From positions 64,294,001 to 64,358,000 of the forward strand of contig OX597822.1 of the NCBI GenBank assembly GCA_951406725.2: a stretch of 64,000 bases of DNA. Direction: 5' to 3'. This document shows, piece after piece, positions 9,716 to 64,000 of the stretch. The position numbers and the translations under genes are program-made. The stretch comes from Octopus vulgaris. Its lineage: Eukaryota. The notes under the pieces are model-generated. The model did not search any database. It worked only from the letters and a program-made list of their open reading frames with translations, and had not been told where the DNA came from. Numbering within the stretch: the first letter of the stretch is position 1; every line of letters begins with the position of its first letter.

Positions 9716-10083
9716 ACTCTTTTCAGTCATTTGACTGTGGCCTTGCTAGAGCACCGCCTTTTAGTCGAGGAAATCGACCCCAGGACTTATTCTTTGTAAG
9801 CCTAGTACTTATTCTATCGCTAGGTTACGGGGACGTAAACACACCAGCATCGGGTGTCAAGCGATGTTGGGGGGGGGGGGGACAAACACGGACACACAAA
9901 CATATACACACACATTCATATAGATATATATATATATATATACGGCGGGCTTCTTTCAGTTTCCGTCTACCAAATCCACTCACAAGGTTTTGGTCGGCCC
10001 GAGGCTATAGTAGAAAACACTTGTCCAAGATGCCACGCAGTGGGACTGAACCCGGAACCATGTGGTTGGTAAGCAAGCTACTT
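9716..10083 (-). mobile_element. SINE-A, 3' portion (host of the ORF1-only insertion; 5' portion at 11555-11596)
   Basis: Consensus continues across the insertion with duplicated TGGT(A/T)AGCAAGCTACTT. Confidence 0.9.
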
Positions 10084-11554
10084 TATTTCTTTTAAATTGC
10101 CATAAAGGCATTACACAGAGGGGGCACTACAACACTCGTGGGACATATAACAATTAAAAATAAAATATGTTATAATGAATGAACATGAAAATGCACATGA
10201 AGAACAAATTAAAATATGATAATATGAATGATATCTGAAAATGATATTATGAAGAGTGTGCTACTCACCTCACACTGAGTAACACAACTCGCTGCCTCTG
10301 GGTCCTGAGTCCTTTTTCTCTTTTCGTCCAATCCTTTTTTCCTTTTCACTGTCACTTAATGATAACATTCTCTCCGTCATGCATTCATAACCTTTTTCAC
10401 CGGGAGTGGGGTCTTCTAAATTTTGTGGTGTCTGTTCTTTCTTTTTCTTTTTTTTTCTTGAGGGGAAATGGGGTGGGTGTGTTTGGTGTCTGTATGGGGA
10501 GGGTGGGTCTGAGTGGTCTTGGATGGGATGGGGTTGGACTGGGGTGCCACATCATACTCAGTGTCTTTTCTTTTTTTCCTCTTTCTCCTTTTGCGCTCTG
10601 CAATTTTCCATTCTTCCTCTTTTTTATCGTTTCCTTCGTCTGTTTTGTCTTCCTCTCTTTTCTCTTCTGTCTCTGCAACTATATCCTCAGCCGTAGTCCT
10701 TCGTAGAGGGCAGTATGCTCTAATGTGGCCCTTTTGGCCACATTTAAAACAACGTGGTACTCTGCCCTCTACCCACACCCTCAGCACGATTTCCCCCAGC
10801 GTCACAGTCTCTGCCAAGTTCTCGAGTTGTCCCTCCTCCGTCTGAATAATTAACTCGAGCGTCCTTCCTTTCCACCCTCCTTCTTCTGTTTCTGTGGCTT
10901 GGAGGACAGCCACCTTTTCCTCGCTTCCAACAAGGACAGCTGCCGCTACCCAAGCCACATTTATATCAGGCGGAATTCCTTCTACCCTTATCTTGGAAGT
11001 CCTTCTTCCAAGATACGTGGGTAGAAGGACCATTTCCTTCGTCTTTACCGTTTTGCCCGCCAGCCTCCTTGCCTCCTCCTCTGTTCTGAACTGGACTACC
11101 ATTGTCCCATATTGGCATCCTCTTGTCATGTATATTACTCCGTTGGATTCCTCCTTTACTGCCTTTTCTATTTTCTCTATTTCAATTAGGTCGATCTTCT
11201 TACTCTTTATCGAGTAAACTTTGTATATGACCGTTCTTTTTATGCCATCCATTATTCTTTGTGGCAGTGACAACGTCACGTTGCCGCCCACTTTCTGCAC
11301 CATTTTTCTATGCTCCTTCATTCTTGATAAATCCACCTCTTTTCTCTTCACCTCCACAGCTTCTGCGAAACTCTTCATGTTCTTCAAATATTCATCCATG
11401 CATTCTACTGCTCTCAGCAGCTCCTCCTCTGCAGAAGACAGCTCAGACTCGCTAAGGTCCGAGTACATTACTAACCTCAAAGCAGCAAAAGGAAAAACGT
11501 CCGACTCGCATACAAACGACAAACCAAATGCACTATGGGTAACCGGAAGCAAGC
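10084..11554 (-). mobile_element. ~1.47-kb non-autonomous L1/Tx1-type non-LTR element (ORF1 only) inserted in the SINE-A head
   Basis: TSD 10067-10083 / 11555-11571 (1 mismatch); 5' end GCTTGCTTCCGGTT..TCGGACGTTTT; 3' tail CCCCCTCTGTGTAATGCCTTTATGGCAATTTAAAAGAAATAA; no RT. Confidence 0.85.
10416..11468 (-). CDS. Gag-like ORF1 nucleic-acid-binding protein, 350 aa, single CCHC zinc knuckle (CFKCGQKGHIRAYC)
   Basis: Uninterrupted ORF from the first ATG inside the element (MYSDLSESE); CX2CX4HX4C, basic WKIAERKRRKRK motif; homologous to the ORF at 63363. Confidence 0.85.
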   Translation of the reverse strand: MYSDLSESELSSAEEELLRAVECMDEYLKNMKSFAEAVEVKRKEVDLSRMKEHRKMVQKVGGNVTLSLPQRIMDGIKRTVIYKVYSIKSKKIDLIEIEKIEKAVKEESNGVIYMTRGCQYGTMVVQFRTEEEARRLAGKTVKTKEMVLLPTYLGRRTSKIRVEGIPPDINVAWVAAAVLVGSEEKVAVLQATETEEGGWKGRTLELIIQTEEGQLENLAETVTLGEIVLRVWVEGRVPRCFKCGQKGHIRAYCPLRRTTAEDIVAETEEKREEDKTDEGNDKKEEEWKIAERKRRKRKKRKDTEYDVAPQSNPIPSKTTQTHPPHTDTKHTHPISPQEKKRKRKNRHHKI

Positions 11555-11596
11555 TGGTTAGCAAGCTACTTACCACACAGCCACTCCTAGGCCTAT
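11555..11596 (-). mobile_element. SINE-A 5' head fragment
   Basis: Reverse complement ATAGGCCTAGGAGTGGCTGTGTGGTAAGTAGCTTGCTAACCA. Confidence 0.85.
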
Positions 11597-11984
11597 GGAT
11601 GGAAGCACTCCGTCGGTTACGACGACGAGGGTTCCGGTTTAACCGAATCAACGGAACAGCCTGCTCGTGAAATTAACGTGTAAGTGGCTGAGCACTCCAC
11701 AGACACGTGTACCCTTAACGTAGTTCTCGGGGATATTCAGCGTGACACAGAGAGTGACAAGGCCGGCCCTTTGAAATACAGGTACAACAGAAACAGGAAG
11801 TAAGAGTGAGAGAAAGTTGTGGTGAAAGAGTACAGCAGGGATCATCACCATCCCCTGCCGGAGCCTCGTGGAGCTTTAGGTGTTTTCGCTCAATAAACAC
11901 TCACAACGCCCGGTCTGGGAATCGAAACCGCAATCCTATGACCGCGAGTCCGCTGCCCTAACCACTGGGCCATTGCGCCTCCAC
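11597..11984 (-). mobile_element. Full-length tRNA-headed SINE, family C, with 11-bp TSD CCTAGGCCTAT
   Basis: A-box TGGCCCAGTGG, B-box GGTTTCGATTCCC; tail GTCGTAACCGACGGAGTGC shared with 21450 and 53530; TSD 11586-11596 / 11985-11995. Confidence 0.9.
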
Positions 11985-12084
11985 CCTAGGCCTATAAAAT
12001 AATAATAATAATAATAATGATAATAATAATAATAATAATAATAATAATAATAATAATAATAATAATAATAATAATAATAATAAT

Positions 12085-12303
12085 GATAATCCTTTCTACT
12101 GGAAGCACAAGGCGTCAAATTTGGGGAAGGAATTAAGTCGATTACATCGACCCCAGTGCGCAACTAGTGCTTATTTAATCGACCCTGAAAGGATGAAAGG
12201 AAAAGTCGACTTCGGCGGAATTTGAACTCAGAACGTAGCGATGGGCGAAATAGCGCTAAGCATTTCGTCCAGCGCGCAAACGATCCAGCTTGTTCACCGC
12301 CTT
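12085..12303 (-). mobile_element. SINE-B (alternative tail ..CCTTGTGCTTCCAGTAGAAAGG)
   Basis: Family match. Confidence 0.85.
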
Positions 12304-62532: not shown

Positions 62533-62535
62533 TGA

Positions 62536-62567
62536 TGCAGGAGTGGTTGTGTGGTAAGTAGCTTGCT
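62536..62567 (+). mobile_element. SINE-A head (host of tandem insertions)
   Basis: GCAGGAGTGGTTGTGTGGTAAGTAGCTTGCT. Confidence 0.85.
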
Positions 62568-62791
62568 CTGGCACCAGGTAAGTGTGGCCGGATCAAGAAG
62601 TAAAGGTTCTACCCAGATGGCTGGGATCCGTGCCCTACTGTATAATACCAAATTTTAAAAACTTTATATTGTAAATATTATATATATTTTATTGTAATCA
62701 CCAACGTTTTAAGCTACTACACCCTATATGTTTGTCTGTAATTGTATGTCCCCTCTATGTAACGCCTTAATGGCGAATCTTTCATGAAATA
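62568..62791 (+). mobile_element. 5'-truncated Tx1-like 3' end, TSD AAGTAGCTTGCT
   Basis: TSD 62556-62567 / 62792-62803; tail TGTCCCCTCTATGTAACGCCTTAATGGCGAATC..GAAATA. Confidence 0.8.
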
Positions 62792-62807
62792 AAGTAGCTT
62801 GCTAACC

Positions 62808-64000
62808 TCTGAACTGTTCGGACGTGTTTTTTTTGCTGCTCCAGATGAACGTTGTTTCAACGTGAATTGTTGAACTTTCGACTCGACTAAAGGTAGGAAT
62901 TTTGTATTTTTGCGAGCGAAGTGAAGTTTTATTACTTGCATGAATGTTTTTTAGCATTTAATATTTTTTAGCAAATAATAAGGCTCCACTTTGCTCCGGA
63001 TATAATTTTTCTGCCTGTGTCGAGTGAAAAGAAATTGTATTTTTGAAGCGGCATAGTCCGTCTGAAAAAATTATTGTTGAAATTGTCGTTGTGTTGTCCA
63101 CAGATTACCAAGGATTATTTACCAAGGGTTTTACCAACAGTGCATTTGGCCTGGATTACAATTTTTGGCCGAAGAAGTGGAAAAAAAAAGAACTGAATTC
63201 CTTTGTCTGAATTGAACTCTCTTTCTCTGTCTATTATTTATTTGTAAAAACTTTTTTGAACTGCCATTTTTAATTTTATTTCTTCCCTTCTGTTGCATTT
63301 TTTTCATTCTCCTTTCTGTGGCTAATTTTAGTTTATCATTTTGAACTGTTGTATTTTACGTTATGGCAAAGGCAAAGAATTTCACTGTGTGGGAATTAAC
63401 ACCTCCCAAAAAATATTTGCACGAACTCGAGGAAAAGACCGTGGTGTTGAGGACATATTCAAAGTCACTCGACACCATAATGGTTTTTCCGAGAGACACC
63501 ATTGTGAACGAGCTGGTAGACTATATGCCAGCCGTTAAACATATTCAACGGGGAGTCAAATACGCAACGGTATGGTTGCTATTTGACTCCGCTGAAGCAG
63601 CTTGCAAATTTGCAAGCCAGCCCATTGAGGGCGATGAGATTCTGTTTCTCCCCAGTTACAAGGGGGGAAAATTGTTACGTTTATGGGTCTGTGGCCTGCC
63701 GCCCGGCTTTGAGCCCGAGTGGGTGGAAGATTCCATCCGCCGGGGTCTGAGCGGTGGTAGCGCCAAGATCCTGAATGTGAAAATGCAGCCTGCGGCTAAC
63801 TGGGAAGGAGGAAAGGCTACTTTGACTCTGTGGACCCAGTCGGCCAAGAATCTGGTTTTGCCGGACTTCCTGAAGATGGCCGGGTCCAAGTATCCGGTGA
63901 TGCTAGAGGGACGCGCCCTCAAGTGTCACCTGTGTTCGGAGACCGGCCACATTAAGAAGAAATGCCTCAGGGACCAAAGTAGGATCCTGGAGAAGTTGAT
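62808..64000 (+). mobile_element. 5' part of a second L1/Tx1-type element at the same target (runs off the window)
   Basis: Starts right after AAGTAGCTTGCTAACC; 5' motif TCGGACGTGTTTTTTTGCTGCT shared with the 10084-11554 element; ORF1 downstream. Confidence 0.8.
63363..64000 (+). CDS. Gag-like ORF1 (partial, open to the window end) with CCHC knuckle CHLCSETGHIKKKC
   Basis: Manual translation MAKAKNFTVWEL..EKTVVLRTYSK..RGVKYATVWLLFDSAEAA..LFLPSYKG..GLPPG..LEGRALKCHLC.. with no stops; aligns with the 10416-11468 protein; absent from the ORF track because there is no stop. Confidence 0.85.
   Translation, partial: MAKAKNFTVWELTPPKKYLHELEEKTVVLRTYSKSLDTIMVFPRDTIVNELVDYMPAVKHIQRGVKYATVWLLFDSAEAACKFASQPIEGDEILFLPSYKGGKLLRLWVCGLPPGFEPEWVEDSIRRGLSGGSAKILNVKMQPAANWEGGKATLTLWTQSAKNLVLPDFLKMAGSKYPVMLEGRALKCHLCSETGHIKKKCLRDQSRILEKL

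Follow-up and report, generated by a model that had tools for sequence, protein, structure and literature searches.

Introduction

Target choice in retrotransposons without long terminal repeats (non-LTR elements) is described as being determined mainly by the endonuclease (PMC4494074). Several long interspersed nuclear elements (LINEs) with an apurinic/apyrimidinic-type endonuclease (APE) are specific for multicopy sequences, namely Xenopus Tx1L in Tx1D, Keno in U2, Kibi and Koshi in microsatellites, and Dewa in a tRNA-Leu spacer; the portions of the two sources available to us name no short interspersed nuclear element (SINE) among these targets (PMC4494074, PMC3706591). Herein, we describe in Octopus vulgaris a LINE lineage that is likewise of the APE type and multicopy-specific, but whose target is a SINE, designated SINE-A. 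The system was found in a stretch of 64,000 nucleotides ("the window"; assembly GCA_951406725.2, contig OX597822.1, positions 64,294,001 to 64,358,000, forward strand).

The closest known system is Tx1-Mar with SINEU in crocodilians. As presented in the available text of PMC4494074, it shares with the octopus system the residence of Tx1-type LINEs in another transposon, passengers with a common target, and tandem insertions. Tx1-Mar differs in its target, two regions of a Mariner DNA transposon, and in a SINEU preference of 13-90%, whereas the octopus system involves a SINE head, a single base, passengers that encode only ORF1, and an antisense motif that tracks target variants. Such passengers are comparable to HAL1 (half-L1), a non-autonomous LINE derivative encoding only ORF1 and with several origins; HAL1 is described as arising from mammalian L1 (PMC5753468, in part), whereas the octopus passengers comprise many families whose target is still a single base. 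For SART1Bm and R1Bm, it has been proposed that short RNA sequences resembling the target pair with target DNA during priming. According to the part of PMC7265360 at hand, those sequences are sense and pair with the primer strand, unlike the antisense motif of the octopus, which sits within the tail and varies in step with natural variants of the target. Thirteen recently active L1-Tx1 families are reported for an octopus in a paper whose available text does not contain the word "target" (PMC13282606). Our literature search, based on partial texts and with Repbase and Dfam entries (which possibly note the target) outside its scope, returned neither a SINE-targeting LINE nor an antisense tail motif. 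The octopus system is Tx1-type targeting of another mobile element in a new variant, and its testable novelty is the RNA motif.

A LINE lineage inserts at one base of SINE-A

The 224-bp LINE tail of the window (62568-62791) was used as a query against the 2.8-Gb genome, and 40 of the 248 candidates were scored. All 40 tails stop at the same base of SINE-A, 31 of them continuing into the SINE body and nine into a target copy with other sequence behind it. The 5' breakpoints are varied, with 32 distinct positions, one of which is common to eight full-length copies. Exact target duplications measure 0-16 bp. A constant 3' end, varied 5' truncation and target duplications are features of the L1 group, and sequence-specific insertion into a multicopy target is a Tx1-like trait. 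An earlier note on this DNA had proposed, from the window, both the constant 3' with variable 5' junctions and an L1/Tx1-type lineage that uses SINE-A as its specific target; the genome-wide copies uphold both.

Full copies are 5.7 kb long and carry ORF1 and ORF2, with ORF1 upstream of ORF2 (L043); ORF1 scores above the cut-off for zf-CCHC. One copy (L044) has an intact ORF2 of 1133 aa with Exo_endo_phos, RVT_1 and zf-RVT domains, that is, the N-terminal APE endonuclease, reverse transcriptase (RT) and C-terminal zinc motif that define the L1 group. Its catalytic N, E, Y, D-N, D and DH positions align with those of human L1 ORF2p, which is also the best match of solved structure (E 7.9e-66). 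Six copies that target SINE-A formed one clade in an RT tree (SH-aLRT 100; a quick tree whose outgroup was not clean). This clade lay inside a group that also includes an Argonauta protein and a microsatellite-targeting family and is separate from plant L1, in a tree built without a Tx1 reference; protein searches with the LINE returned no named Tx1 protein, and the Argonauta protein is the closest named relative of ORF2. A large group of proteins from public assemblies (P0015-P0094) shows 42-53% identity in the RT region, and among named animal proteins only that of Argonauta is closer. Contigs from four sequencing runs with three species labels cover 30/30 bins of the element and are uninformative on transcript ends.

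The junction pattern RAAATA/AAGWAGCTTGC (the slash marks the junction here and below) has 1,673 genome-wide occurrences, as opposed to seven for the reversed control, confirming the enrichment that the earlier note had suggested looking for. The AAGAAG form of the target (A variant) accounts for 441 of these junctions; the other form is AAGTAG (T variant). For scale, the head-side 17-mer of SINE-A has 128,033 occurrences. The first 30 junctions fell into 20 tail clusters. A sample of 76 junctions from one contig (30 in order, plus 24 further A-variant and 22 further T-variant junctions) contained ORF2 sequence in 15 and ORF1 in most of the others. A terminal GCC-loop-GGC hairpin region is common to all aligned tails, and its stem is flipped in two A-type tails. 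Four junctions (L127-L130) are stacked on one SINE-A site at a spacing of about 2 kb. The insertions are independent, as had been expected: the distinct 5' breakpoints come with differing upstream flanks and, together with the number of tail clusters, exclude a single ancestral chimera.

A tail motif complementary to the target matches its variant

A motif of 8-13 nt in the tail is complementary to the target, with the core AGCT(A/T). It was detected in 44 of the 76 junctions; 28 have A in the core and lie at AAGTAG, 16 have T and lie at AAGAAG, and none is discordant. One hit of the A type (L137) lies outside the homologous position, leaving 43/43 concordant. The Fisher p value for this match is 2e-12, which overstates the case because the copies are related. 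An exact match of at least 7 nt to the tail's own variant was present in 39/76 tails, to the other variant in 5/76, and in 2.2% of shuffles. Motif and target switch together at three steps (in a tree of 19 of 33 ORF1-only tails). In LINEs the motif is found about 79 nt before the tail end, as against about 45 nt in ORF1-only families; these positions do not align, which points to two separate origins.

A tail-only search with a passenger family carrying the motif for the A variant gave 40 matches, 30 of which were examined (one pair is duplicated); the intact ends lay at AAGAAG in 29/29. Among the first 100 intact targets listed, 19 are of the A variant. T-variant SINEs, with a median of 6.4% versus 3.0% for this passenger family, are the older of the two, so T targets were available, and timing is ruled out as the cause of variant use. 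A pattern built solely on the LINE motif gave 18 tails with the A motif, 15 at A-type targets, three ambiguous and none at AAGTAG. ORF1-only family A, which lacks the motif, occupies 22 T and five A targets (n=27), matching the background, and its target variant changes seven times in a 32-row tree that includes rows picked by pattern.

It is scarcely credible that the composites spread as SINE-element chimeras, or that the variant match stems from timing or from a flank that the donor RNA supplied. Some loci are indeed duplicated (L083/L084, L222/L223 and L069/L074/L076), but the varied 5' breakpoints with their differing flanks and the 20 clusters among 30 junctions speak against such spread, as do the agreement of 5' and 3' target copies in variant wherever both are readable and the different ages of the hosts of A and T families. 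This explanation is largely refuted already.

The ages of the elements also bear on which ORF2 moved which RNA. A-motif passengers are 2.4% apart and thus as young as the T-type LINE (2.2%). The nearest neighbours of the A-motif LINEs found are at least 6.6% apart, except for one local duplicate pair at 4.7%, and no young A-variant LINE that would match the young A passengers was present among the LINEs found. With young A passengers and old A-motif LINEs, the sequences suggest that a T-type ORF2 delivered A-motif RNA to A targets, barring an overlooked young A-type LINE.

A possible mechanism of variant choice

Target-primed reverse transcription and trans-mobilisation of ORF1-only elements are established LINE biology. 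We consider it fairly probable that an endonuclease nick at T/AA is combined with base-pairing of the RNA tail to the target during priming, and that this pairing would pick the matching SINE variant. The nick in the SINE-A head is placed at T/AA because the junction reads like that of L1. The element end and the AA of the target together form AATAAA at the junction, so the RNA would extend into the first bases of the target flank. The motif could then base-pair with the flank carried on the same RNA, and this stem would exchange strands with the nicked DNA, the motif going to the top strand and the flank to the primer strand; a single mismatch would thereby be counted twice. A full-length cDNA would likely attach its 5' end by annealing to the target sequence that it carries. 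Every insertion restores the target, which makes stacks possible.

A broader proposal, put forward tentatively, is that target choice in a eukaryotic LINE is partly programmed by base-pairing of an antisense guide in the RNA tail, which would exchange strands with the nicked DNA. A passenger RNA would in this way redirect a borrowed ORF2 to the target variant of its own, and the guide would have originated two or more times and been adjusted to changes in the host SINE.

Several observations weigh against a guiding role of the motif. No motif was detected in 32/76 junctions, indicating that it is dispensable for site choice. On well-supported branches there is a single independent motif/target pair, and most of the ORF2 tree lacks resolution. 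Among the 18 A-motif LINE tails, one (L297) lies in a degraded host whose downstream part resembles the T variant, and two further tails are ambiguous. The search may also have overlooked a young LINE of the A type whose tail differs. The motif is predicted to pair with the flank in 4/4 motif tails folded, and the z-scores of these folds against shuffles (-1.4 to +0.6) are not significant. A look-alike with a 6-nt match is present in the sister family that targets microsatellites and does not insert into SINE-A. The target footprint, scanned over positions 1-12, gave no signal, and positions 1-9 show no better conservation in occupied heads (15/666) than in intact ones (18/621). Finally, the A copies are decayed, and the one endonuclease loop of the A type that can be read differs from that of the T type.

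Part of this evidence would fit an endonuclease that alone picks both site and variant, the motif serving to close an RNA stem with the flank or to tag passengers for their own ORF2. The primary role ascribed to the endonuclease (PMC4494074, in part), the landing of motif-less family A at the same site, the differing loop region among the T type, the one A copy and the microsatellite family, and the predicted motif-flank stem all favour it. It is nevertheless unlikely, given that the search yielded no young A-type LINE that could have carried the young A-variant passengers, and that a stem would select donors rather than landing sites, yet dead-end copies are variant-exclusive. Endonuclease specificity by itself leaves the tail-motif pattern unexplained.

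The motif is also complementary to the sense RNA of SINE-A, and the site falls between sequences that resemble the A and B boxes; through trans pairing with SINE-A RNA made at the target locus, the motif might tether the particle to transcribed copies of the matching variant. The hosts of the A families are old and decayed (12.9%), which makes their transcription less likely, and we regard such a tether as very improbable.

ORF1-only passengers and inserts in the window

The earlier note had reported four inserts at one SINE-A site in host orientation, and all are at their places, with the head broken after GTGTGGT. On the reverse strand, a SINE-A head with its A-box-like 5' part (11572..11590), interrupted at GTGTGGT/AAG, is followed by the 5' copy of a 12-bp target duplication (11560..11571), a family A element without the anti-target motif (10084..11559) and the 3' copy (10072-10083) with the SINE-A body to the limit of alignment (9960..10083). 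The bases next to the 12-bp 5' copy do not match those of the 3' host and turn up again in L078, L079 and L080; they therefore belong to the element, which spans 10084-11559. A 17-bp duplication, as first described, is refuted by the 12-bp exact match and the element-borne remainder. Similar mismatches are present in L051, L197 and L202. Another low-copy repeat, at 11605-11788, 21448-21773 and 51406-51799, adjoins the broken head at 11590.

On the forward strand, two inserts are stacked. A SINE-A head holding the first target copy (62538..62567; copy at 62556-62567) is followed by the 5'-truncated 3' end of the autonomous LINE with its terminal hairpin (62568..62791), which carries the anti-target motif AAGCTACT about 80 nt before its end. 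The second target copy (62792..62803) completes AATAAA with the LINE end and precedes a family B element (62804..64000 in the window; about 2.04 kb in all) with an ORF1 of 399 aa from 63363 and an anti-target motif, also on the forward strand, about 45 nt before the element end. An ORF2 had been expected past 64000; the element ends 850 bp beyond the window (L031:2850), has the 399-aa ORF as its single one and closes on SINE-A body, so that expectation is refuted.

Both ORF1 elements of the window are complete, HAL1-like ORF1-only passengers, flanked by target duplication and with a LINE-like 3' end; the earlier note had inferred non-autonomous passengers. Their common site and tail make it likely that ORF1-only elements are mobilised in trans by the LINE ORF2. 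The family A ORF1 (10416..11468, reverse strand; 350 aa) has a CCHC zinc knuckle just below the Pfam cut-off and shares 25% identity over 179 aa with that of family B. ORF1 matched a ZCCHC3-RBD cluster in the Atlas (0.91, rank 15). A ZCCHC3-type CCHC ORF1 may be a Tx1 feature; a literature check gave no confirmation.

Of the 40 matches to family A, 30 were inspected, and 27 of these end at the target. The remaining three (L069, L074, L076) are near-identical copies that end at the non-target sequence AAGGAAGTAG, probably reflecting a single event that was then duplicated. Many elements, with L063, L073, L082, L092, L200, L202 and L208 as examples, start with CTTCCGG or GCGCATGCG, which resemble ETS and NRF1 sites; these starts are possible internal promoters.

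SINE-A and SINE-B

No tRNA was found in SINE-A by ARAGORN, and Rfam gave no tRNA match. The A and B boxes between which the insertion site falls were assigned by eye, each with one mismatch to the Pol III consensus.

The fourth insert of the window is a short form of SINE-B (54590..54806, forward strand), whose tail is related to the LINE tails. It stands between a SINE-A head with the 5' copy of the duplication (54560..54587) and the 3' copy with SINE-A body to the limit of alignment (54807..54931), with three extra bases between its 3' end and the target. The exact duplication is 11-12 bp rather than the 15 bp first given. SINE-B had been counted as a regular passenger, which is ruled out by its 20 ends at the SINE-A target against 58,439 SINE-B ends in the genome and by the three-base shift of register. 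Seventeen of the 20 share one register, that with three extra bases, where about 1.3 per register would be expected at random. The enrichment at the SINE-A site is at most about 13-fold, an upper limit because the junction pattern is laxer than the end pattern. Sixteen of the 20 directly follow a broken SINE-A head and so are genuine insertions; SINE-B is an occasional insert at this site. In the window, 1/25 SINE-B matches is at the SINE-A site, and most are in arrays at a site inside SINE-B itself. These head-to-tail arrays (20997-21313, 24692-25227, 31732-32646, 51918-52479) have units joined at G/GTATTTCG, and 184-bp spacings of SINE-B are frequent genome-wide. One tight pattern found no SINE-A-type tail fused directly to the internal site of SINE-B, which leaves such absence unproven.

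Related elements

A related LINE family with 53-59% ORF2 identity ends at AAAGAAA/CATAT, often in (ATCT)n, with 2,441 candidates; a microsatellite-targeting relative is thus present in the octopus genome too, as with Kibi and Koshi in the sources cited above. It was seen at L031:3690-3850 and in L143-L172, and a similar tail was recognised by translation at 47439-48020 of the window. Its tail matches the last 42 nt of SINE-B. Elsewhere in the window, 38010-38399 and 38691-39704 are C-terminal LINE fragments with a PD..D motif, the first followed by (TAA)n; presumably they represent the restriction-like endonuclease of the R4/Dong type.

Discussion

Site-specific targeting by LINEs is credited mainly to the endonuclease, and the natural variants described here make a contribution of the RNA testable by a single base swap. 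The material for such a test comprises target and motif variants that differ by one base, a family without the motif as control, and an ORF2 that is both young and intact. If the proposal is true, the target of an APE-type LINE could be changed in part through its own RNA. Even otherwise, the octopus genome holds a large radiation of at least 1,673 insertions and many families inside another retroelement, cutting its promoter region.

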